A DNA stretch of 61,988 bases, filler included, from Porpidia crustulata (Eukaryota), in assembly GCA_964255105.1 (NCBI GenBank). It is 8 parts of 8 records of this genome, joined end to end, with 100 filler letters (N's around TTAATTAATTAA, not from the genome) between each part and the next. Parts side by side here need not be neighbours in the genome. Positions count along the whole stretch, not along the records: positions 31,084 to 38,738 come from CAXUWE010001267.1; 7 more parts are not named here. One strand, written 5' to 3'. Made by a program: the position numbers and the translations under genes. The notes beneath the pieces were generated by a model. The model did no database searches and was not told where the DNA came from. It worked only from the letters and a program-made list of their open reading frames with translations. Each line of letters begins with the position of its first letter. The stretch's first letter is position 1. Below are positions 8,338 to 54,343 of the stretch, piece after piece.

Positions 8338-9513
8338 TGCGAAGGGCGAGGGGTAAGGAGATGCGTCAGTAGCTGTTGGAGGGTTCAGGCGCAAACGGGG
8401 GCTTTCAGGAGATGCAGTGTGCGAAAGATTAAGAAGATCCTAGTGACCGCGTGGTCTCAACCGGTGCACAGGAGCACCTCGGAGTAAGCTTTTTGTGCAC
8501 AGGGAGGTCAATTTAGAGGTGATTAGCTACTAAGCAAGTTGTACGTGGTCACTGGTCAGGTTGGCTTTGATATTTGACGCGTCAAGGACGTGTAGGGCTG
8601 AAACTTTGGCCTAGTCCTCAGCTCGTTTCTGGGTCGACCACTCCGTACTTACACATACTCTCCTTCCCCTTCCTAATGGAGTACCTTTGGAATTGGGATT
8701 TACAATTGCATTAGTACCTTCCCCTAGAGGGTCCCCTGTAGGGTGGACATAGGAGAGGCGGTAGGTAATATGTTCAACGAGAATAGCATTTCAGTTTGGG
8801 GGAGATCTGATTGGGGATAATGAAAATGCTTTCAAAATTGTGCACAGGACAAAAGTCAACAGCATGCCGTTGATTGATGGTGATCAGGATAATACTGGCT
8901 CGGAGAAGTAGCAGATTCCATGGGCCAGTGCAAACCACGGGGAGGGAGGGAATCGTTGATTGCTGCTCTTGGTAATAAGTCAAATTTTCCAACGACAGGA
9001 ACACCTGAAAGTGCAGAGTGATACGATACTCGCATCAAGCTAGATGATGTCTGGAAGCAGTGTTATAAAAGTGTTTGATCTGTCAGGCCCCTTTCTTTCG
9101 GATTTAGTCGTTCATTTTTGTAGTGAATGTGATTCGAGGGCGCCTTCACGCAAAGTGTTCAGTAACAGTCCGGATGAGTTGACAGGAAACAGTACATGAA
9201 TACGTGAGTATCTGAGTAGATGAGAAGAGTCTTGAGTGTGTACTTACATATATATCAGATTGCTTCAAGTGAGGTCGACGATGCTTGGCTAGTCGGTTAG
9301 TACTATCAATCCATGCGCCGATCATCGACCCCGCTGAGTTACCCTCGCCAAGTACCTTACCGTCTTTCGCGTCAAGAAGTCAAACATCGCAGCTCCGAAA
9401 GATCACCAAACAAAGCGCAATATGAGCAGTCGTACTCTCCTGTCGCATAGACTCGAGCTTCACCTTTCTTAAAAACCTGCCTTCCATCTTCAGCGCCTCT
9501 CTTCACTCACACC

Positions 9514-11837
9514 ATGTCCAAGCTATCCTCGCTCCTCAATCCGTCCCCAATTCACTCGGACGGATCAGCTCCTCAGTCGCAGCCATTGACCTTTGACGGC
9601 CCGAATGATCCACATGTTGATGAGTTACCGGAAGGTATGGGCCATACTCAGAGTGGAAGCCTATCTCATCTCCCAAATCTTACGTCTCCGCTCGAAGCTC
9701 TCGCATCCGCAGCCACGAGCAGCGCGCCAATGCTGTCACCGAGCAATCCAAACGGTATCTCTTCAATACCTCCAGGATCTCACCTGCAAAAGCTCCATCA
9801 TCCACTATCGCGACCAAATAGCAGCCATGCATCGCCTCCACCGCCTTTTGACTTTGCGCGACCGTCAGACCTTCCACCACCAAGGTTCTCCCCTGGCCTT
9901 GAACAATACCATCATTCAACGAGTAGTGAGGTGAGGGCTAGACGGATGTCCGGGATCACCGACGATACCTCCACCGTGCTTGCTCCCTTTCGGGGCTCTT
10001 TCTCTGATACGGATCGTCAATCGCCTGTCCCTCTTCCTACCCTGCAGCCGAACAGCGAGGTCCCTAATGGCGATGAAAAAATATCTTCGGTACAGCCAGA
10101 CCATGAATCGGTTCACTCATACAACCCGTCCGCGCACATCCGACACCCTTCACCGGGTTCGACATTCCCTTCTGTAAACAGTACTTCATCTGGAGTGCGG
10201 GATGTGGAAGTGAGTGTGAAAGCTGAGATTCCCGAAGACACTTTTGGACTTTCGCACAAGGTACGACCGGAACCTCTGGAGCCAACGAACAGGCACGGGA
10301 CACCCCTAGCAGAGGCTAGCCCAGCGGTGGAAGGATCAGTAGTCTCCCGAGTCGTGGCAAGCTTAAAAAATGACGAGAGTTACCAGCCTTCTTCGAACAC
10401 CACGGAGGACCTCAATCACAGCAAATCAGTGACTCCGAAACCGGCTCCAACCAGGAAACGAGCAGCGCCAAAGAAAGGTACAGCAAGCGCAATCAAACCT
10501 CCATTAAAAAAGCGCAAGATAGATACAGACAGTATTGATGGTACGCCTTCACTAAAGCGTTCGGCGACGCCGGCATCCAGTCGCGCAAGCAAGACTCCGG
10601 CTCCCAAGAGTCGCAAGCAAGACTCTGCCACCCCCACTCGCAGCTCTTCAGTGGCCCAGCCGGATGACGATGAGAATGCATCTGATTCGGAGCTGTTCTG
10701 CATTTGTCGTAAACCTGACGACCATACTTGGATGATAGGGTGTGATGGGTCGTGCGAGGATTGGTTTCATGGGAGATGTGTGGACATGAGCGAGGAGGAT
10801 GGTAAAATCATTGACAAATGGATATGTAGGCATACTCACTTCAAAGCTAATGGCCGTTGCTGACTTGTCTCACCGTGTCAGGTCCAAATTGCCAAGCGAA
10901 AGGGGAAGGTCCGACCACTTGGAAAGCGATGTGTCGCCTCGAAAGCTGTCGTCTGCCAGCCAGGGTTACTGGCGCAAACCCGTCGAAATACTGTAGCGAT
11001 GAACATGGAAGGGAGTACATGGCGCGGCACGCAATGAAAGACGAATCAGAAGAGAAAAGGTTGGCTGCTGTACATATCAAAAGGAGAAGGAAGAGCAACT
11101 ATACTGACAATATCGGTAACGGAGACGAAGCTATCGAGGTTGATGATGAGCCAAGCTACCTTCGAGGTGGCGTACTCAGAGCACCCGAACTCAAAGCCGT
11201 GGTCACTGGTGTGAAAGACCTCAGCGAATTTCGAAAGCTTGGAGAAGGCGTTCTTAGCCCACCTCGAACAATTAGTCCCGATGGTAATGATATCAAGATG
11301 GAGGATGGGACCAAGAAAGAGACTATTGCATACACGGATGGAGAAGCTGAGAAGCTCGCAGAATTAACCTCGACTAAAGAAAATCTGCGAATGCGCAAAA
11401 CCATGCTTGAAGACCGTGATAGTTTCCTGGGACTCGTCAAAGCCCGCGGTAAAGCAGCCCTTGACGAGCTTCGCAAGAAAGACAAGTCGCTAAAGGACAT
11501 TTGCGGCTACGACGCGCGCCTGAGCTGGTCAGACGAGGAGTTCAAGATCTGGAGATGTGGCCCAGAAGGCCAGAAAGCTTTCGACGACGACGTATTGGGT
11601 GCGCCACCGCTAAGTGAAGATGCGATTGACACCACGGAAGATGACGAATCGGTGCGCGGTGTTTGTCAGAAGAAGCGCTGTGAAAGGCACAGAGCCTGGT
11701 ACAAGCTGCAGCAGCAGGACGTGGCATTTGAGAAAGGCGAGATTAGGCAAAATTTGAGGAAGCTAGAGCAAGAGGAACGGGGAGTGAAGGATCGAGCGAT
11801 GATTCGATGCTTGGAGAGCGGTGAGGTGGATTATTAG
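9514..11837 (+). CDS. SPP1: COMPASS PHD-finger subunit Spp1
   Basis: PHD finger LFCICRKPDDHTWMIGCDGSCEDWFHGRCV...WIC/PNC split by an intron at about 10827-10881; SKYCSDEHG; ICGYDARL; C-terminal CQKKRCERH. Confidence 0.88.
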
Positions 11838-12852
11838 GTCGTGGTACTTGATGGTTGCAGGGAATCTTAGGGCAGCGAAGTGATTTAGTGACGACTTTCT
11901 TCTCTAAAAATCCGGGGAACGTTGACGAAAGCGAGGTGTTCGGAGCTTTCGTAGCAGCAGCAGCAGCACTTGGAGATCCTGGTTTATATGACGGCTGGCG
12001 GGGTTTCTTTCTTTGTACCGAAAATACCCAAGAGTGCCATGTAGTTTCACACATAGCAATAATGCAAAGTATGAAACAAAGGTAGGACTTGGTGGAACTG
12101 ACACTGGTGAAAGTTTGGTGATTTGGGTTGTGCCCATAGTGAGAGTGTGATCATGGGGAACTGCGCCTCCTTGAGGTGGCTAATGAGTATCTGCCTATTC
12201 AAGCACTCGAGCTACTTTCAGACGTACACCGAATCTCCCTTATTGAATCAAATTAATGAAGCATGACATCCTACAAGGCGTTTGTCTAATGTGCATAAAA
12301 AATGAAGTAGGTTGGGAAGATTCAAGAGAACGGATTTGTCGACAATAGGCCAATACTATGGTAGAGATTGGACGACCTGACGCTTGAAGGTCAACAAGAC
12401 GTCTTGGGATTATCAAAAGCTATTGATAACGCTTTACGTTCTGCTATTTCATCATCAGTTTGGAACATCTTCCCTTCATCGTGATTTTATAATGTCGATA
12501 TGGAGTATTTGAACAACAGCATTACTCAAAATCCGTCAAGACGCCTTCAATCTTTGGTGCGTTATAGACTTTTTATCTGGTGGACACAATGAGCCCCAAT
12601 GGACCTGGAGCACGGAAGAAAACAATTATTACATCAATCAATGGAATCAAGAACTTGGTAGGCGCACATGGCATGAATATGACGACTTTCCAGGCATAGC
12701 TCTGATGTGGACGATATCTAGGGCGCTGGGACACCATTTGGAAGGAGAACTTGGACTTGAGTAGGGTACCCACGGATAGCAGCCTTCGCAATGTACCAGT
12801 GGAGTCCAAAGTCGACCTCGAAATTGTCAAGATTGGGGTCGTTTACACCGAG

Positions 12853-14820
12853 ATGGATGCATTCAGGCAGGATGCTGTCGAGACATATTTTGCCACGAGA
12901 GTAGACGAGGAGGATGTCGAACTCGATAGTGAAACTAAGGATCCTCAATCAGTTGATTTTTGTACTTGTACTCATCCACCGCTGCAAGGCTCCCAAGACA
13001 TCAGAGTGTTGGAGCTTTATCCGGGAGACTTTACGGATGAGTTGTCATGCGCGTTGCACATCTGCTCAGTTGACTTTGAATATTCTGCTAGCATTGACGA
13101 ATCCACAGGTCTCAATTTCGCACCATACACTAATCACGCAGTGTTTCGAGAGACAGGCCAGCTAGTTTGGTATACCGCCCTTTCGTACGTCTGGGGTGAT
13201 GCTACACTTATCATGCCAATAAATTGTAACGGACTACCGATTTATACAACTAGAAATTTGGACATTGCACTACGTCACCTCAGGCAGACGGATGTGGCTG
13301 TAATGCTATGGATAGACCAGATTTGCATCAACCAGGAGGATCTGGATGAGAAATCACGTCAGGTGATTCTGATGAGTAAGATTTATCAACGTGCTTGGAG
13401 TACAATTGTATGGCTTGGTGAAGAAGCCCATGACAGTGATAATGCTATGGACACCCTGAGAACGATCAACGAAGCTCTTCAGTACTACACCGATGAGAGA
13501 GCTCCTGACCCCGAGGACTTTGAGCGACTGTCTCTCCCGGCTCCTGATTCACAGGAATGGGCAGCATTGAGCCAATTCCTCGACCGGCCCTGGTTCCAGC
13601 GAGTATGGGTCATTCAAGAGGTTGTGCTTTCGAATAACATCCAGGTCGTTTGCGGGAATAAGACCCTTCCCTGGTCTGATATAGGCCTCTTTGCCATCTG
13701 TATGGTCACTCACGACCTCACACGGTATCTCAACACTAGCACAGATGTCAAAGGACCGGCTATAGAGACAGGCTATCGTCATATTCTACGGATTGATAGT
13801 ATCAAAGACCATAATGACACTCTTACTGAACCATTACCACTATTACAGACGTTGGTGGAAGCCCGTGGCGCTCGAGCCACCGATCCAAGGGATAACGTCT
13901 TTGGGGTCATGGGCATGTCGTCGACACTGATCTATCCTGACTACTCCCAAGCTATATTTGACGTCTATACGGAGGCAGCCCGGACGATGGTCACAGACCG
14001 TCTGATGAATCTTTTATGCTGCGTTGACAACGTAGAGCCGCTGCCAGGCCTTCCGTCCTGGGCTCCAGACTGGAGTTCTGCCCGGCAAACGACATCATTC
14101 GGCTATCTCGAAGCCGGCCGCGGGATATATCAAGTAGCGAAAGGATCAAAGCTGTCATTCAGCATCGGGCAAAATCGCGACTCCCTCATCATCGACGGCA
14201 TCCTCTTTGACACTGTAACCTGCATCACCGAAGTAGCCAACCCTTCGTTGCAAGACCTTCTCGACGCTCAAAGTCCCGCCAGTCAATTCGTCGCGCAAGG
14301 CTTGTATCTCGCAACTGCCTACTGCGGTCCCTACCCTGCCCCATGCGGTCTCTTCGACGCTTTTTGGCTCACTCTCGTCGCTGGTAAGGACCATTCCGGA
14401 AAGACAAAAGCCCCTGCCGATTATGCTCCCATTTTCGCGTTGCTTATCGACTCCATCACCGGCTACACGCCCTCTTTCCCTGATCAGCCGTCGGCACAGC
14501 GGAAGCTGACACTTGAGAACCTGAAAACAAGACGTCCTGGCCGCATGTATCGCGAGATACAGATCGCTTTCGAGATCGCAGTCCAGGGGCGGAGATTTGG
14601 TACGACCGCAAACCGCTACATGGGGCTCTTTCCTAGAGGAACAAGGGCGGGAGATGAAATATGTGTGTTTGCGGGGCCATGCGTCCCCTTTGTTGTGAGG
14701 CCCGTCGAGGGGGAAATTGGGGTATTCCAGCTTGTGGGAGAGTGCTACGTGCACGGAATCATGCGTGGAGAAATCATGTCGATGGATGACTTCGAGATGC
14801 AAGGAATCGAGCTAGTGTAA
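12853..14820 (+). CDS. HET-domain (het-6-like) heterokaryon incompatibility protein
   Basis: IRVLELYPG, YTALSYVWG, LWIDQICINQ, MSKIYQRA, WFQRVWVIQE, ATDPRD, LPSWAPDW, GECYVHGIMRGE. The start codon is uncertain (ORF is open from 12751). Confidence 0.93.
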   Translation: MDAFRQDAVETYFATRVDEEDVELDSETKDPQSVDFCTCTHPPLQGSQDIRVLELYPGDFTDELSCALHICSVDFEYSASIDESTGLNFAPYTNHAVFRETGQLVWYTALSYVWGDATLIMPINCNGLPIYTTRNLDIALRHLRQTDVAVMLWIDQICINQEDLDEKSRQVILMSKIYQRAWSTIVWLGEEAHDSDNAMDTLRTINEALQYYTDERAPDPEDFERLSLPAPDSQEWAALSQFLDRPWFQRVWVIQEVVLSNNIQVVCGNKTLPWSDIGLFAICMVTHDLTRYLNTSTDVKGPAIETGYRHILRIDSIKDHNDTLTEPLPLLQTLVEARGARATDPRDNVFGVMGMSSTLIYPDYSQAIFDVYTEAARTMVTDRLMNLLCCVDNVEPLPGLPSWAPDWSSARQTTSFGYLEAGRGIYQVAKGSKLSFSIGQNRDSLIIDGILFDTVTCITEVANPSLQDLLDAQSPASQFVAQGLYLATAYCGPYPAPCGLFDAFWLTLVAGKDHSGKTKAPADYAPIFALLIDSITGYTPSFPDQPSAQRKLTLENLKTRRPGRMYREIQIAFEIAVQGRRFGTTANRYMGLFPRGTRAGDEICVFAGPCVPFVVRPVEGEIGVFQLVGECYVHGIMRGEIMSMDDFEMQGIELV

Positions 14821-15668
14821 TCTGGAAAAACCCAGCCAAGTGCAGGCGCCTCGCGATACCCGGCCTTGAGATTGGAAGGGCTTTTCTTAGTCGACAAGTA
14901 GGCCCTGGATCAAGTATGTACAACCCCTACGATGATCGAGCAAGGAAAAGTGACGAGATCTACTACAAGATAGTGATGAAACCATCCAGTCTTTCGAGTG
15001 ATTCAAATACATCTAGACCTACCATCTTTCCCTCTTAATACCAATTCTACGTCACCCGGGAAACCAATAAGACCATGCAGCAGGTTGGCTGAACAGTATA
15101 AAACCGTAGCAAGAGTCATTGCACCGACATCGGCACAAAGACACGGCGCTGGGTTGTTGGACCTGGGTTAGAGAACAAGGAGTCGGCCGTCGAAGAAAGG
15201 AGACGAGGATGTGACGATAGAAAGATTCCGAAATCTACATGAATTTTTAAATGCAATCGCAACAGGAACAGAATAATTGAGCGTTGATAGCTGAGAAAGG
15301 GGGAAAGGGGTGTCGCTGTAGTTCAGAGCGGAGTTTATTCCGCTTTTTCTATATTACTCAACCACTCAACTAAAGTTCTTACTGGTAAATGTCACTCACC
15401 GGACCCATTGTACAACAGTCCAGCCCCCTTCCCCCCACCCAAAAATGCNNNNNNNNNNNNNNNNNNNNNNNNNNNNNNNNNNNNNNNNNNNNTTAATTAA
15501 TTAANNNNNNNNNNNNNNNNNNNNNNNNNNNNNNNNNNNNNNNNNNNNCCCCACTACACGTCCGCCCCCCTCCCCCAACCCCGGTATCCAAACCTTCAAG
15601 CCTCCAAACCCGTCACTCCTCGAACCTCCAAACCCCACGACACTTTCGTCCAGGTCCCCCAAACCCCC

Positions 15669-22442: not shown

Positions 22443-23316
22443 AACGCCTGAATATCGTTGATGATAAAAGGATATGTTCTATGTTTCTTCGATGACGGTG
22501 CTTGGAGAACGTGGTTGGATTGTCGAGGACTGTAATTAATAAAAAGGGGGTCTTGTTTGAAACGGCAAATGTCGTGGCACATCTGCAGGACTCGTTTCGA
22601 TTCGTGGTTGATAGATGTACATATGACTATGCATGGCATGCACCCGTGTCTCTTGCATGCTTTACTACTATTTGCCCATGTTCTCGTCTACTCGTCCTGA
22701 GGCGAGGCTCGCCATAAGTCTTTCAATATCAAAGGTATCGTGAAATCCGTAGCTTCTCATTACGGAACATGGGCCTCGCAAATTCGACACATCACCGGTG
22801 TTCTGATAACCCTCGCTCCTTCCTCACCTCTTCCCCTCCTCATCCCTCCCTCTTGTATCCAAAACCCTCGGGACTTACACCTACGACGCGTTGCCCCGGG
22901 CCTTGCCGATCTATAGGGCCATGCCGTGATTGTGATGCTGCGGGAAGGAAGGGGGCGTGTAAGAGACTCTTGAGAAACATGATTCACATTTCGCGTCTTA
23001 TGGAGCTTGAGGAGCTCGAGCAGTTTGCTTGGACATCTTACTTTCGTGGCATGCCTCTGAACACTGGATCTGGGGCAGTTGTGTACAAGACAACGATGTG
23101 GAAGGGGCATAGCCAAATCGGATGATATATTATGCTGCATCCTCACCGTGGCCATCATCACCAGACACCGGCACGCCAGCCGCCCCATCACGATTCGCCC
23201 TCCACACTCCCCCATCNNNNNNNNNNNNNNNNNNNNNNNNNNNNNNNNNNNNNNNNNNNNTTAATTAATTAANNNNNNNNNNNNNNNNNNNNNNNNNNNN
23301 NNNNNNNNNNNNNNNN

Positions 23317-25767: not shown

Positions 25768-27076
25768 TTAGTCATTGTAGTTTGATAGACGAGACCCATC
25801 TTTGTCCACTTTCGGCTGGCCATAGCGGGCAGAGATCTCTTCCTCTTGCGATTTTCCAGCACTATCGAACACGGGACGCTCTGCTTGAGAAGCAACACGA
25901 ACTGCGTGACGACGGTGGGGAGCAAATCCGTACGACGCAGAATGATTCTACGGTCTCCATTAATGCTCGAATTAGGGCAATGAGGGAAGCATATTACTTA
26001 CAGTGATGCGATTGTCCCAGAACGCAACGTCATTCTTTTGCCACTGGAAGCGAACGTGGAATTCTTGTGTGGTTGTAATCACTTCGTTTAGATACTTGAT
26101 TACGGCGTTACTCTCCGCTTTTGGGACTCCGACGATGGTCGTCACGAAGCCAGGGTTGAAGAACAAAGATTTCCATCCAGTCACAGGATGAGTACGAACA
26201 AGCGGGTGCTCGGATATGACGGGTTCACGACGGACCGGGCGGCCAAGAGCTTTAGAGCCTTCAGATTGAATGCCGGCCGAGTGTAAAGCCGTGAGTCCTT
26301 CGAGATACCGTTGCATGGAAGACGAGAGCACATCATAAGCCGCGTATTGAGAAGCCCACAAGGTGTCGCCACCGCCACCACGTGGAGGGCCCGAGAGAAC
26401 CTTGAGTGATGTGTAGGAGGGAGGCTGAATTTCGTAAGTCACCTATAGAAAGTTAGCAAGACGCAAACCCTGCTTGGCGCGATGTGTTTACATCCGAGTG
26501 CCAAAGAAACGATGGCTCAAAGAGGGCGCGCTGATCTCTAGACTTCTCATCCGTGTATACGACATGAACATCTTCCAAGCCGGGTCGCCTGGGAACAGCA
26601 GTGGTCGCATGCTTATGGAGCTTACCAAAGTACTGTCCAAGTTCCCGTTGGGCGTCTATGTCCAAGTCGGTCTGGTTTCGGAAGAATACGACCCCTCGAA
26701 CCGAGATCAGACGGGCCAAGTCATTCTTCTGTGCATCTGTAAGCTTGGCCAAATTGATGCCAGCAATCTCAGTGCCGATCTTGGGGTTATAGTCGAAGAT
26801 GTCGGTGGCGGCGTCAAGGAGATTACGGAATTGAGGATGACCATGAATACCTTTGTCATGATATGGCACTTCCGTTAAAGGCTCCCAATGGATGTCTGGA
26901 AAAGTTGGGCGGAGATCTTCATGCTCATAGAAGTCGTGACTCTCCACATCCGTATGGCCGGGCTCGTATACTAAGTCTTGTGTCTTCGTACGCGACTTTG
27001 ACCAGGCGAGGTCATGGTTGGTGATTGGCTTGGCGTAGACCGAGTAGGCATAGGGTTCTTCCAAAGACGGAGTCAT
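25768..27076 (-). CDS. TauD/TfdA Fe(II)/alpha-ketoglutarate dioxygenase (Jlp1-like sulfonate dioxygenase), 3 exons
   Basis: PKIGTEIAGI, RGVVFFRNQ, WHSD/VTYEIQPP, GGDTLWAS, EHPLVRTHPVTGWKSLF, FWDNRIT/NHSA...RRHAVRV. Confidence 0.93.
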
Positions 27077-29949
27077 ACTAGGATGTAGGTGAAGTATCTT
27101 TGTTGATGGACTACTTATGAGACTAAACACTCAGAGAGAATCAATCAAAAGTTAGGAAGTGGAATGAGGGAGGAAATTTAGGAAAGGTAGCAGGATATTA
27201 AATAGGGAAGGGCAGAAACAGATGAGAAAGCAACGGATGACGAATCCCAATAAGATGAATGCTACCGACTTACCTGACTATTAGGTACTGTCGGGTTCGA
27301 ATCACACTGCATCGCATCATCAAGTGGAAAATGGCAACACCAACTCATTATACATTACAAATTACACAGCAGTCACCTGGATCGGCCAAGGCCCCGGACA
27401 GGTCGTTCAGTCGGATGTTGATTAAATTTGCAGCTTTCTCCACATACCGTAAACCGTTTCAGGTCAGTAAACACGCGAGGATCCCGGGCAGCTGGTGTTA
27501 CTGCCAGTTGTATGCCCATGGCGCAGAAGGCTGTTGATTACTAGCGCTGACCCTGAGCTTTATCATCTCGCCTGCAAATAGCGACATAAGGGTCGATACC
27601 ACACAATAGACAAACGGCGGAGATATACGCTCTCAAGAGTTCCTATCTCTCATGACTACCACGACAAGTGAGCGTTTGACTGCTTTCAAGCACAAAGTTG
27701 GGAGTGTCGTTGAATAAATCCGTTACTCTCGTTAGTTGGTGAGCTAACATCGGCGCTAACTCCACAATTATCTTAGCGTGTTCCACCCGCTCCCCTGGTC
27801 GCTTGTCTCCCTCTCAGCACGCAACCACATCTGCAAATGACACAATCAAGACAATGAGGCCCCCAAGCAAACGTATAATTCACCTGAATGGACCGGCTCC
27901 GCATCCAGCATGAGCATGTTTCGCTCCTCTCCTTGCATTGCACACAATGGAGATCGTTATGCATCTGCCTTCACCGCTTATGTGAGTCTGCGGAATACCA
28001 ACAATATAATCGGATTCGGATTACTAGCAACTACTTCAGCCCTCACAGTTGCGACGCGGTTGCCTGAGATGACCTGAAAAGAGACATATCGTGGCGCCCA
28101 GCTAGATGCCCAAGTAAGAAGTATCATCGTTCCACTCATCACACTGCCCGCTGTACTTGCCCCGGTAGCGTATGTCGGCCCCCGCAGCTCGAACTCTTCA
28201 AGTCAACAGCTCAACAAGTCAAAATTCCAAGAGGCCAGACTATTCTCCCGAAAGGATTGGTACATATCGATCAATCAAATATGACATTAAGTGTATTGTA
28301 CGAACTTTGTGTCATCCGTCCCATCCGGCTGGCGCCTGGTCTTTCTCTGTTTGACCTTGACAACCACTGTACATGCAAACGGCGCTTCAGGTCAATCGAG
28401 CCTGTCGCTTTCTGAAAGAAACCTGTTCACTTGAAGGTGGTCTCCTTGAACGGCTTCTTGTTCTGGCGGAAATGACGCTGCAAATTCTTGAATCACTACC
28501 ATGTTGATGGATTCGGTGACATGCGTTAGGTCTCAAGACTTCCCGACTCCAGCGCGGCACTAAATCTTGAGCTTTGTTCTTCACACCATCATTTCGGCCG
28601 TTTGCCTCTTCATGATTTCGTCGAGTATGTCGGGGGCTGTGTGGTGACCAATTACCTCGTATTGTTCAGTCAGTCAATAATCATGCGCTTGCTGACTTGT
28701 TTATGGGTAACCTCAAACGAGGCCTTGATCCCCGCTCATCAGAGTAAGAGGACTATTCGAACCATGTCACGCGCAGTCGCAGACTTTTCAACAGTAGCAT
28801 TACCTGCCACAATCCTCCAGATCATTTCGGTCCTTGATGGTCTACGAACTGCGCTTCTCTATTGTCACTCGAATCTGATTCTGAATCCAATGCTCTACTA
28901 CAGGTGCACTGTATTCTATCACAGGACTTATCGTATTAGATGGATAGAAAGATGGGGATTTTCCGCAATTATCTTCTAGCGCATGTAACGTCGCCTTTTC
29001 TTCGCTTGCTATCTTATATGTGTGTTGCGCCGTAATCATACAGGAGTCATCGATTATCGCCTGCTTCAACTCGTTTGCGATTTCCTCCCGCTTCACCGCC
29101 GCCCCCACTATTATCTTGATAAGAACTTTGAGGTCCTTATGTTCGATGTCCATGCGCTAGAGGTGAAAAGGGATTGTATTCCATTAACACCAACCACCGG
29201 TCGTGGCAATCTGTTTCGGGGTTTGGATCGCCATTGTTCCAGGAGGTTGGTCCGAACTGTTAGGCCTGTTTAGCTAACGGGATCTTAATGCTGTATGGAG
29301 GCATTGTTCACTGCTCCACACGCTGATAAGAAGAAGCTCTTGCAAACTCTAATTTCTAGCAGCAAATTAAGCTAGGTCAGTGTTTTCAGCCTCTTACGAC
29401 TACCAGTGCTATCTAAGTCTCCGTGGCTTCCTGTCGGAAGACTTCTACAATCACAGTGATGTGTTCGGCGTTCGACAGCGTTTGGGCAGGGGACGTGCAA
29501 GATACGGCATCGGCTTTAAAAATCGTAGAGTCTGCAAGCCGGTCTTGATGCGTTCTTGACACAGCAGCTAATACTCTTGGAGTATCCTTTAGATTCGTTC
29601 ACTGTCCTTGAGCACTACCATGTCGGTTATTGGAATCTCTGGTCACAGTTTTTTGGTTGCCCCAAGGAAGCCTATGTCATCCGATGGTACGTCAAGCACC
29701 TGCAGGAGGTAAGCACCCGAGGCCGTGTCCTTGTGTTCAAAATAGCCTATTCCTGGGATGCACGGCAGATTTGCAAAGTCGAGGTAAGTCCAGTACTCGA
29801 GCATTGATTCCGCTAGTCAACATCAATTCAGCAAAACAATCAAATCTAAGAAATCAATTGTTGGGAACGAAGACGTTTAAACATCTAAATACCCATGTGC
29901 TGAAATGCATTTATGGTCCGCACAATAAGCTTTACGCTTACAGAACCTG

Positions 29950-30983: not shown

Positions 30984-31083
30984 NNNNNNNNNNNNNNNNN
31001 NNNNNNNNNNNNNNNNNNNNNNNNNNNTTAATTAATTAANNNNNNNNNNNNNNNNNNNNNNNNNNNNNNNNNNNNNNNNNNNN

Positions 31084-31347
31084 AGGACGAAGAAGGGCAA
31101 GGGCAGGAGCCAGGAGGAGGGTGGTGAGGATGATGAGGAGGGTTATGCCGGTGAAGATGTATAGGGATCGGGTTTCCCTGCTGCGGCTTTTGGTTTGCGC
31201 GGCAGTTTCGACCGGTGGTTCGGACTGGGAAGCTTCATCCGCTGCTTGTTCGTCAGGTAGCAGTTCGTACAGTCCATGTCCTGGAGCACTCATCCATGAG
31301 AGCGGGTTCTTGGACTGCCAATATCGTGACGGCTTTGCCATTGCCAA
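31084..31347 (-). CDS. N-terminus of a type II membrane protein, possibly another DUF3328/UstYa-like oxidase; truncated
   Basis: Charged N-terminus (GLYELLPDE) then one TM helix (LYIFTGITLLIILTTLLLAPALALL), the same layout as its neighbours. The catalytic region is not in the window. Confidence 0.45.
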
Positions 31348-32038
31348 AGTTGCCAGCTCAAGTCTGGTAGGATGTCCTGAGATCCTTCGGCTGCAACGGT
31401 ACTGCAGGATTCTTGCTGGTGTGAACCAGTGATTGATGGTAAGCCAGACTGTATCGCAAAAGGGATGTAAATATCAGACTATCACGGAGCCAGCGTGTTT
31501 AGTCATGGCCTTGCATAGCCGATAATTTCACTATACGTAATAGTGGTCACGAAGCAATACTAGACTGGAATCTCAGCTCACATCGTCGCATCATCTCTAG
31601 CTTCGCATTGAAATATGAGAAGCTTTAGAGATGGGGCACATTGACAGAGCGGGAAGTAAAATGCTGTTTACTCTAGTCCGAGAATCGTTCCATATCCGTA
31701 GTACTGAACTTCGATCCGAGCGACGTCAGCTTACACTCAGTTCCGCCTTTCATTTGATATTTGTCGCTTTCCGTTCAGATTGTCAATATTTGCTCTTTAG
31801 ATCTTGACATGAGTATGGCGATTCCCCGCCTTTTCCCTAAGTGTCGTATTTAAGTGCGATATTTGAATCAATAACCTAGAATTTTTGGATAAAGCGACAT
31901 TGATCAGAAGAACGTCTCGCTCCTGAAACAGCGTAAGTGACGACCGTCCAATCTCGATATTTCTATTTTGACTTATTTATTTCAAGATTCATATTGAAAT
32001 TGGCGCTGTGGGCTACCAGCCAGAAGAGTGTCGAGGCC

Positions 32039-32716
32039 ATGGGTCATGAGTTTCAGAGAATCTCAATGGAAGAACCACCGATGGAATATCGCCCAGGCAG
32101 ATGCTCTGCGACTGACTTGGAAAAAGACCATTTCGATGTTGGATTGGCAGAAAGTTTGAATCAACTCTTTCGGCGACTTCGGCTGCTTTACTTCATTCTC
32201 GCCGGCATAGTCATCTTAGCGCTACTAGCAGTGATCAGTGCAGTCGTATGGCCAATCCGGGCTCATACGACCGATCTCATTGATCCTGCTAGCCTTCAAA
32301 CGCAGTTGCAATGCGGAGCCTCCACAAAAGAAGCACAAGCTCTCGGATGCAAATTCGACATTCTTGCAATGGCATGGCTACCACCAGCTTGTGTGGATCC
32401 AGGATTAACGACTGAATTTCGAAGTTATGAGAAGTGGCGATACTGGGCAGACGAGCAAGCCACAGTCGAATTGCGGGAGGATGAGTTGTGGAACCGTTCT
32501 GGTCCGGATGGGGTTGTCTGGGCACCGTTGAAATGGCACCTAGTCCATTGCAACTTCCAATGGCAGAAAATGAACCGAGCCATGCTAGTGGGGAGGAGGA
32601 TTGAAGCAGCGTTGGCCGATTTGGCACATACAAAGCATTGTGGAAATATTGTACTCGACCGTTCTGGCCTCGATGAGCTCAGGACGGAAATAACCATAGC
32701 TTTTTTGACTTGTTGA
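32039..32716 (+). CDS. DUF3328/UstYa-related double-HxxHC protein
   Basis: Single TM anchor; CGASTKEAQALGCKFDILAMAWLPPAC; HLVHC and HTKHC; C-terminal Cys; intronless. Confidence 0.8.
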   Translation: MGHEFQRISMEEPPMEYRPGRCSATDLEKDHFDVGLAESLNQLFRRLRLLYFILAGIVILALLAVISAVVWPIRAHTTDLIDPASLQTQLQCGASTKEAQALGCKFDILAMAWLPPACVDPGLTTEFRSYEKWRYWADEQATVELREDELWNRSGPDGVVWAPLKWHLVHCNFQWQKMNRAMLVGRRIEAALADLAHTKHCGNIVLDRSGLDELRTEITIAFLTC

Positions 32717-33300
32717 ACTAGGTTGTTAGAAACTCAAACTCATGCTGCTATTTAAAACAGTCAATTGACCGAAAATATTCTTGCAAAGAGCTTATGTTCG
32801 AGCAGTAAATGTGACACTTTGCAGAACCAAAATCCCTCGTTTACTAGGATAATCTCCCCAACATCTCATTACTGGTTTGTTTATTATCCTCAAAGGACGT
32901 AGCAGGTGCTCAAGAGAACGCCCCACCTGACTTGGACCCAGGGCTCGTGAAGTTGGCTACTCAGTATTCCTGGGCCGGTCTTGTATGCGGAATTGAAGCT
33001 TTTCCGTGAGTCTCTCGGATATTCTGGCAAAATATTTCCGACTGATGATATGGAAAAATTATTGGCTCCTAGATCCGCAAATCTGTCATTGATTGCTTTA
33101 TTATATGTGCCCTCAAGGACACTTTGGCACTCGATATGATAGTGCTAAGCAGTGCATTTTTTTGCGTAAAGTTTCGAGCGGTACCGTCAGAACCTTTAAT
33201 TCTACGCTGCAAAAGTCTGGAAATTGATTATCATGTGTGAAAATTGTCACCTTTGGTTATTATATTATGTAGTTGCTGACCTATTTTGCTAGTCGTGAAC

Positions 33301-34038
33301 ATGTCGTCTGCCGAAACGGAAACTTCAGATCCCCTCGTACCCAAATCGTCATTCGAGCAGGAACGCTTTGATCAGGAAGCATTGCTTTTGAAGACCCAGT
33401 TTGAGAGCGAGAGAAGCACCGCTCGTTCGAGACATTATCGACACATTTGGACAGTGGCATGCCTTCTCGCCGGGGCTCTCGCCACTATCGTTATTCTAGT
33501 ATTGACGCCTAGCATCAAAATCGAGATCCATTCCAAACCGTCTAACCTGGATATTGGCTGGAATGATGCACTTCAAGTCACAGAAGAGCCTTTTGAGAAT
33601 GGATACTGGTGCGGCCATTCCGCGGAGGAAGCCAGATCTCGCGGCTGTCGATTTGATCTTGTCTTATTCTCGTGGGTTCCTCCACAGTGCTATGACCAAG
33701 GCTTGGAAGACATGTACACGGAACGCCAATTTGAATGGTGGAGGAATGAGAACGGGTCGGATGGCGTTTCACAAGAAGTTGCAAAGCAGGGTACTGAGGA
33801 AATCTTGTGGCTCAACTGGGATTACCACGTTTGGCACTGCAAGCACATCTGGAAGATGATGACTCGGGTCTTAAGAAACTCGACACTCGGTATTCCAGGG
33901 AGTCTTCTCGAGTATGAGCACACGGAACATTGTATCAACGTCCTCACAGGAGACGAGGGTTATCCGCTTGGCGAGATTGGCACACTGGTCACGCTCAACT
34001 ACTCAACCTGCTATACCAAAAATACTGGAGGAATGTAG
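33301..34038 (+). CDS. DUF3328/UstYa-related double-HxxHC protein (paralogue of 32039-32716)
   Basis: Single TM anchor; CGHSAEEARSRGCRFDLVLFSWVPPQC; HVWHC and HTEHC; YSTC near the C-terminus. Confidence 0.8.
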   Translation: MSSAETETSDPLVPKSSFEQERFDQEALLLKTQFESERSTARSRHYRHIWTVACLLAGALATIVILVLTPSIKIEIHSKPSNLDIGWNDALQVTEEPFENGYWCGHSAEEARSRGCRFDLVLFSWVPPQCYDQGLEDMYTERQFEWWRNENGSDGVSQEVAKQGTEEILWLNWDYHVWHCKHIWKMMTRVLRNSTLGIPGSLLEYEHTEHCINVLTGDEGYPLGEIGTLVTLNYSTCYTKNTGGM

Positions 34039-34620
34039 CGTCAAGTAGAGCGTATCAATAATCTAGGGCAGGAGGGCACCGGACTTGTGGGTTCTGCGAG
34101 TTCTTAAGCTCAAGCGTTTCTTGGTTGTCAAGTCGTGGATTTACAAAGTAGTATGTAGGTGGGGACACAACAGATTTACGGCCAAAGCCCCAGAATTCAT
34201 ACACTTGAATGCTTTTACCCTACAATTTCCGCCCCGTTGCAAGTCAGCACCTCCCACCTCCCGAGTGTTGATAATCTTGTGAGCAAAAATATCTTACATG
34301 TAAATCTTTAAAAATTGGGAGAAGCCGATATTGGCGCCAAGGACTTCTTCGCCTTATGGTTTGGTCTATTCAATTCAAGTACCTAGACACCTAGATTATT
34401 GCAAGTAATGTGTAAGAATAGATTACGGGTGTAAAGGTATGCCGTGAGCGTCATGCAGCTGATCGGTCCGCGAGTGCGGATTGCCGGTTAAAATTCTGAT
34501 CGAATAACTCCTACAGCATAAGATTATCCACACGCATCGCAAGCATTCTCAGGATGTGCCGCATAAATAAATCACATTGCTTTGGATCTCTGAGCAATTC
34601 TTCTCACCAAGACATTAAAA

Positions 34621-35676
34621 ATGGGGTTGGTATCTTCGATCATCAGCTTTTCCTCCAAACCCTCTCAACTCTATGAGTCTCTCAGCGAATCAGACTCGGA
34701 GTTTGCGTCTCCAATGTTCAGAGAGAAGTCGGTATACCCAACCCAAAGCTGCCATCGTAGAGACTGATGAAGTAGGAGAAGCTTATTGGATAAGCCGGCC
34801 CTTGTAGCGAGTTTTGGAAAAAGCATGCTATTGTTGTGTTGCTTTTTGCTCGGGTTTGCATCAAGCATTGCTTGGACAATGCTCAGCTACGATCCACCCG
34901 CTGTTCCCGGCGTTCCAGGATGTGAGTTGACAGAAAGCTCATCTTCAACAACTCAAGTTAATTCGTCATCTACCACTCAAGATGTCACTAACCCCACATA
35001 TTCGACCACCTGGATGCCAGATGAGCGGTATGCCCTTGATAGAAACGATAGCACAAGCGCGGCAGCATGGGACATCCTAGAATCTCGTAAGACCCGTCTT
35101 TCTTTGCCGAAATCTTGCCCAGAATCATATTTTTTGAAAGCCACATGGATTGATCTGATCTTGCAGGATTTGTTTTCATCGACAATCCACTTCAGAAAGG
35201 CCTACAGCCTTCAGCACCGAAGGGCATGCCTCGCCAGGTCTACTCGGTCGCTGCATTTCATCAATTACACTGCGTGTATGTTTGTGTCGGCTGGCCGTGG
35301 AGTAGACAGAAAGTGTGCTAATGTATTATAAACCAGAGGTGTGATCCGGTTTGCTTGGCACACGCTGCTTCAGGACGGACGAGAAGCACTTGAAGCAGAA
35401 TTTCCAGGAACTTTTGGAGAGTACACGATAGGAGGGCATTTCGAGCATTGCGTAGAGATCGTTAGGCAGGCGTTGGTATGCTTTGCTGATGCTACGCTGG
35501 GACCCATGATGGGGGAGGATGGTAGGATCTCGGAAGCCGGTATCGCGACAGGATGGGGCGCATTGCATACATGCAAGAACTTTGATAGCCTTGTTTCTTG
35601 GGTGGATGGGCAGGAGAGTGTTCACGATGAGGATGTCATAGAACCGGGTGCCTTGCCAGGAATGCCCTTGAGTTGA
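34621..35676 (+). CDS. Canonical UstYa-family (DUF3328) oxidase, 4 exons
   Basis: Introns about 34728-34775, 35087-35166 and 35276-35336. TM anchor; AAAWD; VYSVAAFHQLHC; HFEHCVEIVRQALVCFADATL; GWGALHTCKNFD. Confidence 0.9.
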
Positions 35677-36726
35677 ATCGGTTGTAGACCATAAGTAGAT
35701 AGGCCATACCTTACGGACAGAACCCAGAATCTTGAGCAAGACTCTTTACAAAACGATTGTAGCGGAAAACTACATTTCTGGAACCAAGAGAAGAGATCAA
35801 GTAATTTGGTGATACACAATTTGAGCGACGAACGTGTTGACACGACGGGGTGACACATGCATCAATAATTATGCATTCATAAATAAGCCTATTTTCACAA
35901 ATCTGAATCTTTTACGTCGAACGTTGCTTTATCTATTCAAACATCAAGAGTAGAATTTATACCGCAAGTTTATTACTTGTTAGGACCTGTATACTCTCGG
36001 CAAGGTAATTTGATTATCTGATATAAGTTGGGATCAGAAGGTCTAATGATAGATGACGTGTCTGATCTCAAACTGACCTCCCACATCGTATACGTGTCTA
36101 TCAAAGTATTGAAATGATTGATTGCACCCCTTCGTCCATCCAGCCATCACATACGTTAGCCAGGTTAGGTACGACCGAGAAGCTAGCCTGTGAGCATCTA
36201 TACCTTTAGCGACTTTTCACTTGTTTCTGGACGCGCTTTGACTAAGGTACTACGTTCAGATCAGTGGGTAGCATTGCACCCAAAACTCCTGCGATTGGAA
36301 AACACGAAGACAGTACGGAATTGTAGATACTGGGATATCCGAGTAAACTCCGAGATCAACATGGTGGAAAGACTCATGCAGGCCATGACATGGAAATCTC
36401 AATTCCGCTCCGTACGGACTCGAACCTGACGCGGAGCGGTGAGGTCAATGGCGGCGGAATTATCACTGATCGCTCCCGTTGTCAGCAGCATAGTATGCTT
36501 TGGCTTTTCGGTCTGTCAGAGCATGACTGTATTTCGGGCACAGCACAGGATCTCGCATCAGCCGCGTGGAAAAGGATGTTAGGTCTTTCAATCTCGCCGG
36601 TGCCTCTCTCGCTGCTGGATTCGGAAATGTTCCTCCAATGGGATACAGGGGACGGACTTCACTTGATAATTTCTTCTCTAGGCTTGATGCGTTTCCAATT
36701 TATGCCTCCGCATCTATCCAATTTAG

Positions 36727-38736
36727 ATGTCAATTGTACTTGTCGAACCAGCCTACAATTCATCGTGGCTGGTCGAGATGTTTTATCCTCTTTTTTCGCA
36801 AAGTCGTGAGTGGCTCGCGATTCGTAAAGAGAAGCTTGTCTTCAAAAGACATATCTCGCTTTTCTCTGATGGCCTTGAGATTCCACGAACCAAACGCATC
36901 CCGTTTCTGATATTTCTCACGCTGGGCGTTGGAGGGTCAGTCGCTGAGTCCTCAGTATGAACCATCTCACTGACCTAATCACTCTAAGCCTGCAAGGAAT
37001 CTTCTCTGTTCAATTCTCGAATGGCTCAGTATGCTTCTCTGTTCAAGCCTTTTACAAACTTGACTGAGGTTGCTGTTATAGCCATACTTGCTCTCTCTTG
37101 GATTTGGCAAATCTCTCATGGGTCTCGTCTGGGCAGCAGGACCCCTTGCCGGAGCATTCGGACAGTCTTACTTTGGAATCTATAGCGATCAGTGTCGTCT
37201 CCCGTGGGGCAAGCGAAGACCCTTTATAGTTGTTGGCGCAATGTCTATCATCATCTTCCTACTTGCACTCGCATGGGTAAAGGAAATTGTATATGTTGGT
37301 GTTAGGTTTATGTGGATAGGCGGAGATCCTGGCTTGGTACAGAATGCAACATTGGTCCTAGCGACGGTGTGCATTTACGGGCTGAATCTCGCAATCCAGC
37401 CTGTTCAAGGTGGTTTACGGGCTTTGATCGTGGATAGCTGCCCCACGAACCAACTAGATCATGCAAACGCTTGGGCGGCTCGGATGACTGGTATATTCAA
37501 CCTACTTTGCTACGGTATTGGATTCGTCAACCTTCCGAGGTATCTGCCCTTCTTGGGTCACACGCAGTTCCAGATCCTCTGTCTGTTTGCCTCTGCGAGC
37601 CTAGCTCTTACGATTGCAGCGACTTGCTACTCAATCGAAGAGAGAGACCCGAGCAACGATGGCCCTCCCGATCCAAAATTGATATCCATAGCCGGTAAAT
37701 TAAGGCATGTTCGCTCAAGCTTTGCCCGGATGCCTCCACAGGTAATGAGGGTGTGCAAAGCGCAATTTGCAGCTTGGTCGGCGTGGTTCTTGTTCCTCTA
37801 TTACATTACAACGTGAGTTATTAGAACCTGAACAGTGCGGTCTTCTGGGAAACTCGCTAATGCTGGTACCCTCTTTAGATACGTCGGTCAAATCTGTACG
37901 AGCTATTTCATTTATAGCCCTTTACCCTTATACCTCACTCTTATCATGAAGGTTAGCCTTGAAACTGACATGTACTAGACGTCAAGGAAACACTAGCCGC
38001 AGAACCCTCAATGTCCATCGCCAAGCGGCAATTCATCGACGAAGAAGCTACCCGAAGAGGTTCCTTTGCACTACTCATGTTCGCCCTCGTCTCACTCCTC
38101 ACCGGCACGTTAGCCCCCTTTTTAGTCCCTCACCGACATCCAAAAACTCCTTACTACCCCTCGAAAACCCCCCGATGCTCCCTCCGCGCCCTCTGGCTCC
38201 TCTCCCACCTCATATTCGCCATCTGCATGTTCAGCACCCTCTTCATCACCACCGTCACCGGCACCACCATCCTCGTCTCCCTCGTCGGTATCCCTTGGGC
38301 CCTGACCTGCTGGGTCCCCTACGCCCTCATCAGCACCGAACTCTCCGCCCGTAACGCCCGCAAACCACTCCCCGACGGCCTCTCTCCCACCATCGTCCAG
38401 CACGAGTGCGAGACCCAGCCCGGCATCATCGTCGGCCTGCACAACATGGCCATCGCCGTCCCTCAGCTCGTCGCCACACTCGCCAGCAGCCTCCTGTTCT
38501 GGATCCTGCGCCGCCCCAACGATGACGTACTCGTTGTCGACGACAGCATCGGCTGGGTGCTCCGTGCCGGCGGCGTTGCGGCGCTGGCGGCCTTGTACAT
38601 GACGGGCAAAGTGCATGAGTCCGAGGGCACGGGCACGGGCGACGTGGAGGCGCGGTTCGAAGCCACTGGGGAGGAGGATCTGACGTCGCTGTTGGAGATG
38701 GAGACGGTGGAACCACGGCCGATTGCGTGGGAATGA
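36727..38736 (+). CDS. Sut1-like GPH/MFS sucrose / alpha-glucoside transporter, multi-exon; start uncertain (36727 or 36778)
   Basis: LTLGVGG/LQGIFSVQFSNGS/PYLLSLG, VWAAGPLAG, SDQCRLPWGKRRPF, RALIVD, GIPWALTCWVPYALI, GLHNMAIAVPQ. Confidence 0.9.
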
Positions 38737-39232
38737 ATNNNNNNNNNNNNNNNNNNNNNNNNNNNNNNNNNNNNNNNNNNNNTTAATTAATTAANNNNNN
38801 NNNNNNNNNNNNNNNNNNNNNNNNNNNNNNNNNNNNNNATGGTAGGGAAGGGGTGAATTGGATTGGATTGGAAGAAGGGGTTGTGGATGGGGGATACGAG
38901 AGAGAGGATGAGAGAGTGAGAGAAGGCGAAAGTGTGGAAGTGAAGCGAGGGTTGGGTTTTGTGGGTGCGCTTGTGTGGGGCTGATGGCGTGAGATTGGGA
39001 TGGTTCGCATGATGACGGGTTGCGGATTTTTGTTAGCCTTTGGCCAGAGATGCACATGACACATACGAGTATATTGATAACTGCTACAAAAGCAACCGAT
39101 GGTATAGTACAGACATCGGGATTTTAGTGTACAATACTCGTACCTTCTATCATCTAAAGCGAGTCGAAGGACAGAATACACATACAGCCGCTGAGCAAAA
39201 AAGCCTCCTTTTCCCTCCCAAACGCACCTGAT

Positions 39233-46493: not shown

Positions 46494-46593
46494 NNNNNNN
46501 NNNNNNNNNNNNNNNNNNNNNNNNNNNNNNNNNNNNNTTAATTAATTAANNNNNNNNNNNNNNNNNNNNNNNNNNNNNNNNNNNNNNNNNNNN

Positions 46594-53532: not shown

Positions 53533-54343
53533 TGAAAGTTCCAAGGATCTTGAGAAGCTCATTTACATTTTCCACTTTCTCATGCGATGATCATTTCCCT
53601 GGAGCTTGAGGCGATGGTTGAAATGACTACGGAGCATATTTGCGGCGTTTCTCGACCGGGGGGTTCCATTCGGTTCGATTTAAAGGGTAACCTGCATTCA
53701 TGTTTTATGTACTATAGCGCGGAGTGACGAGGAGTAAGATATCAGGGAGATGAGGATAGATTCGGATGGCTAATAATGTTGTTCCATCCCGCCCTGTCTG
53801 ATCCTTTCCTCTCGCCACTTCTTCTGGTTCGGATGAGAGCCACTGCGAGTAAAGCTTCCAAGGCTTGAGGCCACCGTGCTAACCTGCCCCTCCAATGACA
53901 CGCTCAAAGCAAACGCTGAAGCAGATAAAAAAGCTCTTGAGATATAATGTACCTCCGCCTCTACGCCCGTCTCCGAAACTCCCCCTCCTTCCCCACTCGC
54001 TGGCGAGGTTCATCGGTGCGTAGCTACCATTCTAGGCAGTCACTTCGCCGGCTATCCGCTTCCTCGATGGCATTTCCGCCGGTTCCTGTCCCTCGTCAGC
54101 CAAGGCTTAAGAAACCCCACTGAAAGCACCATCTCCAACTTACCGAACCCGCTCGCCTCTTCCGCCGCATCTCATCCCCGTTCCACTCTCCCTCCTCCTG
54201 CCCCTGTCCCCTGCTCTGCCCCGCAGCCTGTACAATTTTCTTCNNNNNNNNNNNNNNNNNNNNNNNNNNNNNNNNNNNNNNNNNNNNTTAATTAATTAAN
54301 NNNNNNNNNNNNNNNNNNNNNNNNNNNNNNNNNNNNNNNNNNN

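Follow-up and report, generated by a model that had tools for sequence, protein, structure and literature searches.

The contig CAXUWE010001267.1 of Porpidia crustulata (assembly GCA_964255105.1) is an ordinary fragment of the fungal-RiPP-like kind (RiPP, a peptide made on the ribosome and modified after translation), and it exposes a UstYa-like protein family that is not annotated in Pfam. It occupies positions 31084-38738 of the analysed window, a stretch of 61,988 nucleotides made of eight contigs of about 7.65 kb each, which were joined with N44-TTAATTAATTAA-N44 spacers. The studied stretch is one entire contig with five genes, here called gA, g1, g2, g3 and the transporter gene. The proteins encoded by g1, g2 and g3 each carry two HxxHC motifs; g3 is a canonical UstYa/DUF3328 gene and the other two belong to the unannotated family. 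We lean slightly towards reading the contig as a conserved module of twin-HxxHC oxidases and a transporter that would tailor a secreted peptide. The genes are located as follows:

31341 to 31084, minus strand: gA, an 86-amino-acid N-terminal piece (5′ part of a gene), cut by the left edge of the contig
32039-32716, plus strand: g1, intronless, 225 amino acids, with HLVHC at 32537-32551 and HTKHC at 32627-32641
33301-34038, plus strand: g2, intronless, 245 amino acids, with HVWHC at 33826-33840 and HTEHC at 33919-33933
34621..35676, plus strand: g3, canonical UstYa/DUF3328 gene, firm coding parts at 34825-35086, 35167-35275 and 35337-35676; its motifs are HQLHC (35259-35273) and HFEHC (35437-35451)
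about 36727-38736, plus strand: MFS_2 transporter gene with several introns and approximate exon borders, its stop codon 2 bases before the contig end

The initial annotation of this DNA had described three co-oriented genes with two HxxHC motifs each, followed by a transporter, on a contig without a Kex2-repeat precursor, non-ribosomal peptide synthetase (NRPS) or polyketide synthase (PKS). All of this was recovered: the six motifs were found as described, the transporter follows the array and matches Pfam MFS_2 above the cutoff, and our scans of the contig likewise gave no Kex2-type precursor (tandem or peptide repeat) between 31084 and 38738. In a six-frame scan of the entire window (123,972 codon positions), HxxHC occurs ten times. 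Six of these are the motif pairs of g1, g2 and g3, packed inside 2.9 kb, and the remaining four are isolated singles, so the array is far from what chance would give.

Exon 3 of g3 alone matched the UstYa profile PF11807 with 44.4 bits (E 2.4e-11, cutoff 25) over profile positions 164-219, and the protein possesses the UstYa C-terminal extension after the second motif. Judged by this match, g3 is a bona fide UstYa/DUF3328 member. The gene model, built from splice signals and from the ortholog described below, has three or four introns. An additional in-frame intron at 34922-34981 is likely and an upstream exon starting from ATG 34621 is possible; the N-terminus is uncertain. By prediction, g3 has a hydrophobic segment equivalent to the transmembrane helix of g2. 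A word-index search of exon 3 against longer proteins gave no match at E ≤ 0.001 nor at E ≤ 10.

The proteins of g1 and g2 are paralogs, with 25 % identity in BLASTP (E 4e-24). The g1 product is a type-II protein with a single transmembrane segment, equivalent to the hydrophobic segment of g2, and a Cys-rich luminal domain; the database call of this gene begins nine codons later and gives 216 amino acids. A phmmer search with g2 against 1.84 billion representative proteins (clusters at the 50 % identity level) resulted in 1513 clusters at E ≤ 1e-3, of which 567 passed E ≤ 1e-10, and a word-index search with g1 gave three matches only. From the phmmer matches listed for g2, 150 relatives were scanned against Pfam. 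Alignment A1 (65 rows, hand-chosen and near-full length) comprises g1, g2, P0002, P0003 and 61 of these 150 relatives; none of its rows matched any Pfam family at E ≤ 0.01, bar one stray DUF4257 match. Its consensus starts with a variable tail, continues with a hydrophobic helix and then reads CG.S..EA...GC.FD.....W.P..C.D ... W.YH..HC ... H..HC ... C. Four of the cysteines (C104, C116, C130 and C180 in g2 numbering) are invariant in A1 and two (C211 and C237) are conserved in at least 90 % of rows; in alignment A5, 72 rows of the same family, all six are invariant. The motif residues behave similarly, as H83, C84, H114 and C115 are invariant in A5 and H80 and H111 are conserved in at least 90 %.

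The relatives of g1 and g2 carry little annotation. Ten were looked up and five had source names, each being 'hypothetical protein', including one from a Stictis urceolata metagenome-assembled genome and one from Cercophora sp. In the protein Atlas, the top 17 matches of g2 (scores up to 0.96) were Ascomycota clusters without a Pfam family, and the first named neighbour was a UstYa cluster at 0.85, which we take as a lead only. Solved structures searched by sequence with the family profile and with g3 exon 3 gave spurious matches only. On these homology searches, g1 and g2 are old paralogs in a large Ascomycota family of type-II membrane proteins without Pfam annotation.

Several comparisons point from this family towards UstYa. 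Below the Pfam threshold, PF11807 was the only family that recurred, found in 18 of the 150 listed relatives at E ≤ 1 (the next family was found four times), and the matches span either profile positions ~115-176, which include both motifs, or 4-174, which include the transmembrane helix. In A1, sub-threshold PF11807 matches at E ≤ 10 were found for 10 of the 65 rows. The A1 profile scored the spliced g3 protein at 14.6 bits with both motifs in register. This score was reached by none of 1000 full shuffles of g3 and by none of 1000 shuffles that kept the H/H/C residues, with one in 500 in a repeat of the latter. An hhalign comparison of A1 with g3 gave a probability of 70 % (E 4e-5, 95 columns).

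The initial annotation had proposed structure prediction as a check, and the model obtained for g2 has the tail, transmembrane helix and twin-HxxHC helices of DUF3328 proteins. AlphaFold2 with A1 (mean pLDDT, predicted local distance difference test, 81.5) predicted disordered, low-confidence residues 1-40, a transmembrane helix at residues 41-68 and a confident luminal domain at ~101-240. Folded alone with A5, the luminal domain is a mixed alpha/beta domain (pLDDT 94.9, predicted template modelling score 0.88), in which helix 173-192 bears the first HxxHC and the long helix after it, 205-216, bears the second. A homodimer of this domain, predicted without the use of an alignment, scored 0.64, whereas the best of three controls scored 0.00; the runs showed a contact agreement of at least 77 % and a partner pLDDT of at least 84. 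The predicted interface is formed by domain residues 81-120, that is by the two HxxHC helices. In calibration, the mark for homodimers was reached by 21 of 30 one-chain-pair proteins and by 0 of 23 single-chain proteins; among eukaryotes, 17 of 29 pairs and 0 of 30 single chains attained it, but only one of seven without an older solved relative. The luminal domain of g2 is thus predicted to form a homodimer through its twin-HxxHC helices.

This predicted dimer resembles the description of the DUF3328 enzyme CctR. According to extracts from the CctR paper (PMC12435403), CctR has a disordered cytosolic N-terminus, one transmembrane helix and a luminal domain, its motifs sit on a pair of adjacent helices, which build the homodimer interface as a four-helix bundle, it holds two coppers per monomer, and its activity needs O2 and a reductant. 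Like UstYa proteins, g1 and g2 have a cytosolic tail, one transmembrane helix and a luminal domain (by prediction), twin HxxHC motifs that are separated by 26-34 residues and located on consecutive helices (predicted for g2), a predicted homodimer through these helices, and family members placed inside UstYa arrays. The g1/g2-family domain is predicted to be mixed alpha/beta, unlike the CctR model, for which a helical fold is described. The same extracts (PMC12435403) draw a parallel with the BURP-domain copper peptide cyclases of plants, in which two coppers held by four histidines perform oxidative peptide cross-linking; this likeness is functional only.

Synteny in relatives, another check named in the initial annotation, gave a positive result. 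A metagenome scan with alignment A4 (the g2 subgroup) resulted in 19 loci, which were picked up by g2-like patterns and do not represent the family at random; the same scan with A3 (the g1 group) found no relative. Open reading frames (ORFs) in six frames were scanned with the A1 profile and for HxxHC, and four batches were searched against Pfam. The first had 83 ORFs, those of at least 95 amino acids from L002, L003 and L010 minus the duplicate L003 copies of L002 genes, with six hand-picked HxxHC ORFs additionally. The second had 143 ORFs, nearly all those of at least 95 amino acids from L004, L007, L009, L013 and L019; it left out ORFs called by the A1 profile or overlapping repeats and added a hand-picked subset from L016 and L018. 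The third consisted of 80 ORFs of 50-94 amino acids from the L002 and L003 flanks, and the fourth of 13 family members out of the metagenome loci. Loci L002 and L003 overlap by 6271 bases at 100 % identity and form a 19.1-kb composite, in which the following orthologs were found:

L003 7736-7158, minus strand: g1 ortholog, 44 % identity, E 1.8e-48 (tblastn)
L003 8440-9138: g2 ortholog, 38 % identity, E 2e-59
L003 9943-10550: g3 ortholog, 57 % and 43 % identity, PF11807 at E 6.2e-12
L003 5204-5926 (44 % identity, E 1.4e-57) and 6107-6688 (31 % identity): transporter ortholog, MFS_2 at E 1.5e-10

The exon blocks and intron places of g3 agree with those of its L003 ortholog, and a third member of the g1/g2 family is located at the contig end. 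The order and orientation of the genes differ from those on our contig: g2 and g3 remain paired, g1 faces the opposite way and the transporter gene is found on the other side. As both g1 and g2 have orthologs in the composite, their duplication predates the split of the two organisms. The presence of orthologs of g1, g2, g3 and the transporter together in a second organism means that, by homology and gene content, the three HxxHC genes and the SUC/SLC45-type transporter gene are a conserved module.

Downstream of the g3 ortholog, at a distance of 1.5 kb, there is also a 36-base tandem duplication (L002 5720-5853, equal to L003 12032-12165) that in two frames would translate into a peptide repeat of 12 residues. 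It is probably a mere DNA repeat, since it comes without a start codon or signal peptide.

What the module may act upon is suggested by the other loci. By sequence, the 19 loci can be grouped into about 13 places, nine of which have at least 3.4 kb of sequence and can be evaluated (L001-3, L004, L007, L009, L010/11, L012/13, L015-17, L018 and L019). A PF11807 gene lies at most 2 kb from a family member in four of these nine groups, namely L001-3, L010/11 (E 2.5e-44), L015-17 (E 3.2e-25) and L018 (E 1.1e-33). Two of the four also hold a repeat precursor:

L016 7024-7383, minus strand: precursor whose upstream exon lies around 7480-7560; found again in L017 at 1-222, minus strand
L018 3233-3667, minus strand: precursor, with a signal-peptide exon upstream and five near-identical 19-residue repeats ending in K(K)KR

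The L016/L017 precursor has a signal peptide followed by five KR-ending repeats with Tyr-Ile/Leu cores. A UstYa gene (8640-9168) stands 1.3 kb away in L016, and the family member is at 9611-10532; the locus is a compact dikaritin-like cluster, apparently an uncharacterised one. The L018 precursor is a different one, located about 1.5 kb from a UstYa gene (5209-5745), with a family member at 6430-6954 that is cut by the edge. Both precursors are encoded on the strand opposite to the UstYa gene, 1.3-1.6 kb away, and have Tyr-containing cores. By their repeat pattern, these ORFs are classical Kex2-repeat precursors of dikaritin-type RiPPs. The third locus, L010, contains an array of about 11 kb (3148-14418, the same in L011) on a 499-kb metagenome contig, in which four family members are accompanied by a tyrosinase (12148-12888), a full UstYa gene (5338-6087) and a fragment of UstYa (4622-4831). 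This array is flanked by an amidase and a macro-domain gene, and no repeat precursor was seen within the 19 kb examined. A role in RiPP tailoring is indirectly backed by these loci because the family adjoins UstYa, with KR-repeat precursors at two loci and a tyrosinase at one, and by this association the module probably tailors a secreted peptide.

Such adjacency would also be expected if g1 and g2 were not enzymes but partners of UstYa, serving as scaffold, copper chaperone or heterodimer subunit, with the HxxHC hairpin retained only for pairing with UstYa or loading it. The family stands directly beside UstYa in four of the nine locus groups, it lacks the UstYa C-terminal extension, and the interface predicted on the HxxHC helices could equally pair with a UstYa hairpin. 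However, the four histidines and both cysteines are invariant or nearly so in the 72 aligned members, as in a working metal site, and family members occur alone or in several copies without UstYa. The homodimer prediction passes its controls as well, and we regard the partner role as quite improbable.

Among the remaining loci, L013 has an intron-split family member (1167-2140), and directly next to it come an MFS_1 transporter gene on the minus strand (2418-4007) and a fungal transcription-factor domain (5487-5834); no UstYa gene was found there.

Several observations weigh against the peptide-tailoring reading, and they concern the family as well as the loci. Regarding the family, the initial annotation had assigned all the HxxHC genes to DUF3328/UstYa, in two subfamilies, and had suggested a PF11807 profile search. 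The assignment holds for g3, by the exon 3 match given above, but g1 and g2 did not match PF11807 even at E ≤ 10; there are indeed two kinds of twin-HxxHC gene, but g1 and g2 form a separate family. The PF11807 gathering score of 25 bits was reached by none of the 150 listed relatives (best 19.8) and by none of 20 family members from the metagenome loci, one of which scored 16.5 bits over the motifs. When the A1 profile was compared with the UstYa proteins of L010 and L018, the real scores were matched by 20 and 53 of 500 motif-keeping shuffles, respectively. An hhalign comparison of A1 with A6, a small and ragged UstYa alignment of six rows, gave a probability of 8.9 % (E 0.0037) over 38 columns around the motifs, and outside the motif residues the likeness to UstYa is marginal. 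Unlike UstYa, g1 and g2 end 24-31 residues past the second motif and are devoid of the C-terminal extension (profile positions ~177-220, with conserved Cys/Asp/Trp); the weak PF11807 matches of their relatives stop at positions 172-177. The family also has an N-terminal Cys-rich luminal part of its own (CG...GC.FD...W.P..C). Common descent, as opposed to a shared motif, is unproven because the comparison with A6 is weak and some motif-keeping shuffles match the real scores. We nevertheless consider common descent likely, and the g1/g2 family a UstYa-like sister family that shares the twin-HxxHC hairpin and the membrane layout.

Regarding the loci, neither the contig nor the 19.1-kb orthologous locus contains a precursor (no KR repeats near the DUF3328 genes), an NRPS, a PKS or an accessory tyrosinase or methyltransferase. 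The Pfam scan of the contig matched UstYa and MFS_2 only. Beyond the named genes, tblastx at E ≤ 1e-4 detected no further conservation between the contig and L002/L003 and there was no conserved small ORF. Low-stringency tblastx and blastn of the contig intergenic regions against L002/L003 gave nothing below E 0.18. None of the 80 small ORFs in the L002 and L003 flanks has a Pfam domain, and the larger ORFs yielded only those already named. The contigs of the sequencing run span 31128-38710 and none reaches beyond either end of the studied contig. A precursor may lie outside the contig, as the initial annotation had supposed for the core gene. The proposal of the initial annotation that the array is the tailoring arm of a RiPP-like cluster thus draws its support from the unrelated loci L016/L017, L018 and L010, but the orthologous locus, with no precursor in its 19.1 kb, speaks against it.

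The missing precursor leaves some room for the explanation that the genes tailor a non-ribosomal peptide or another small molecule, with the core synthetase located beyond the contig or elsewhere in the genome. DUF3328 proteins serve the atpenin pathway and, according to the CctR extracts (PMC12435403), act on the NRPS product cyclochlorotine. Moreover, the family locus in L009 adjoins 2-oxoglutarate-Fe(II) oxygenases and not RiPP genes. On the other hand, no NRPS or PKS domain was found in the 19.1-kb orthologous locus or in any of the scanned metagenome loci, and the substrate genes that are visible, in L016/L017 and L018, are KR-repeat peptide precursors. We regard this explanation as unlikely.

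The second group of difficulties comes from the transporter and from the loci without UstYa. The transporter protein matched Pfam MFS_2 with 28.5 and 30.3 bits (cutoff 27), and among solved structures it comes closest to Arabidopsis SUC1 (8bb6, E 1.3e-14) and SLC45A4 (E 1.9e-12). By homology, the transporter is of the GPH/SLC45 sucrose-transporter type; its gene model is again based on splice signals and the ortholog. The usual exporter of a cluster is a drug-type and not a sucrose-type transporter, so a sucrose/SLC45-type transporter is unusual in that role. Furthermore, no UstYa gene was found among stop-to-stop ORFs of at least 95 amino acids (a search that intron-split genes may escape) in five of the nine evaluable groups; in L009 and L019 the family member is located at a contig end. 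These five groups also show no precursor or tailoring gene.

Such findings would fit a contig that carries no biosynthetic cluster at all but a tandem family of membrane proteins, copper-binding or redox-active in the lumen, which serve housekeeping or nutrition. They might handle copper, for example, or oxidise a sugar-linked substrate moved by the sucrose-type transporter. That a sugar-type transporter is kept with the module in a second organism, that the g1/g2 family is very large and that no core gene is seen in the orthologous locus can all be counted in its favour. Nevertheless, transporter synteny from two species is thin evidence, the family repeatedly adjoins UstYa, KR-repeat precursors and a tyrosinase, and the characterised twin-HxxHC proteins in extracts from PMC12435403 and PMC12048977 are all secondary-metabolite enzymes. 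A housekeeping or nutritional role seems improbable to us, and we retain the peptide-tailoring module as the preferred reading.

The initial annotation had also included a fourth, divergent gene with the same layout. An ORF cut by the contig edge is present (gA), and it encodes an N-terminal tail of acidic and basic residues and, after it, a hydrophobic helix, but its family identity is supported weakly. The g1/g2-family profile scored gA at 9.4 bits, a value that no full shuffle out of 1000 attained and that 2 out of 1000 attained when the transmembrane block was preserved. The protein Atlas gave no meaningful relative of gA, and tblastn gave no match for it in the orthologous locus L003. That gA is a fourth gene of the twin-HxxHC type is plausible, with about an even chance on the sequence at hand.

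Building on the motifs, family assignments, predicted fold and dimer, and synteny reported above, we propose a scheme that infers the binding of copper, an oxidase chemistry, a peptide as substrate and a role for the transporter. With the DUF3328 enzyme CctR as the model, we infer a copper-oxidase mechanism for each of g1, g2 and g3. All three HxxHC proteins are predicted to have a short cytosolic tail and one transmembrane helix, and their luminal domain carries HxxHC(x)26-34HxxHC. Two copper ions would be bound by four histidines on two adjacent helices, and the proteins would dimerise through these helices. Inside the secretory pathway they may perform C-H oxidation with O2 and reducing equivalents, leading to hydroxylation, halogenation or cross-linking. 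The likeliest substrate would be a secreted dikaritin-like RiPP peptide on which the two families act in successive steps, and the transporter may carry the product or the precursor.

A bolder version of this proposal would make the g1/g2 family a second, unrecognised family of luminal binuclear-copper oxidases that acts beside UstYa in the peptide pathways of fungi, and the module a new type of cluster whose substrate is not a Kex2-repeat peptide. We find this possible but rather doubtful; if true, the substrate could be a single-core peptide or a glycosylated compound. The searched literature (subscription journals being outside its scope) contained no description of a separate twin-HxxHC family. 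It appears not to have been described that there is a separate, very large family missed by the Pfam model, nor does its own domain make-up or its placement beside UstYa and precursors appear to have been.

Only recently were the DUF3328 enzymes, which carry out difficult C-H chemistry on peptides, shown to be copper enzymes. To find them in genomes, mining depends on the Pfam model, and this model overlooks g1, g2 and all 150 listed relatives that we scanned. If the g1/g2 family is a working partner of UstYa, many fungal RiPP clusters hide a tailoring enzyme under the name 'hypothetical protein' and the rules for cluster detection could be broadened. L016 and L018, where precursor, UstYa and family member lie within 3.5 kb, would then be compact test systems. 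The contig itself is of small practical value, being a 7.6-kb fragment in which no substrate gene was seen.

The window also contains seven other contigs. The spacers are located at 7676-7775, 15449-15548, 23217-23316, 30984-31083, 38739-38838, 46494-46593 and 54244-54343, and because the window consists of joined contigs, genes on different contigs are not neighbours. The other seven carry ordinary fungal genes without physical linkage to the studied contig, and no NRPS, PKS or UstYa genes were found on them. On the next contig (39236-41478, minus strand) there is a fatty-acid desaturase domain (E 1.4e-29), and farther upstream, with the strand unchanged, a cytochrome b5 domain; front-end or sphingolipid desaturases of the fused kind are laid out in this way. 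The following were identified on other contigs:

386-1285, minus strand: lipoxygenase fragment
4182-4628, plus strand: Peroxidase_2 (peroxygenase-type) fragment
12706-14817, plus strand: HET-domain protein
25975-27130, minus strand: intron-split TauD-family dioxygenase

Compared with the known dikaritin clusters (ustiloxin, phomopsin, asperipin-2a and victorin), the contig and its 19-kb orthologous locus differ in that no precursor, tyrosinase, methyltransferase or peptidase was found, that two of the three oxidase-like genes on the contig come from the unannotated family and that the transporter is of the sucrose/SLC45 type. The likeness lies in the consecutive twin-HxxHC oxidase genes with a transporter gene and, among the related loci, in the KR-repeat precursors of L016/L017 and L018 and the tyrosinase of L010. 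The contig also resembles the 'fungal-RiPP-like' regions of Lecanoromycetes, which also have no repeat precursor nearby: extracts from a survey of this group (PMC12048977) describe DUF3328 clusters with conserved twin HXXHC motifs and no recognisable repeat precursor. The same extracts from this lichen survey (PMC12048977) note that the twin HXXHC motif has been proposed as a recognition sign for such enzymes, and a preprint on halogenase mining, as far as its extracts go (PMC12871659), recommends relying on the two motifs instead of homology. Judged by the motifs in this way, g1 and g2 would already count as 'DUF3328-like' among specialists.

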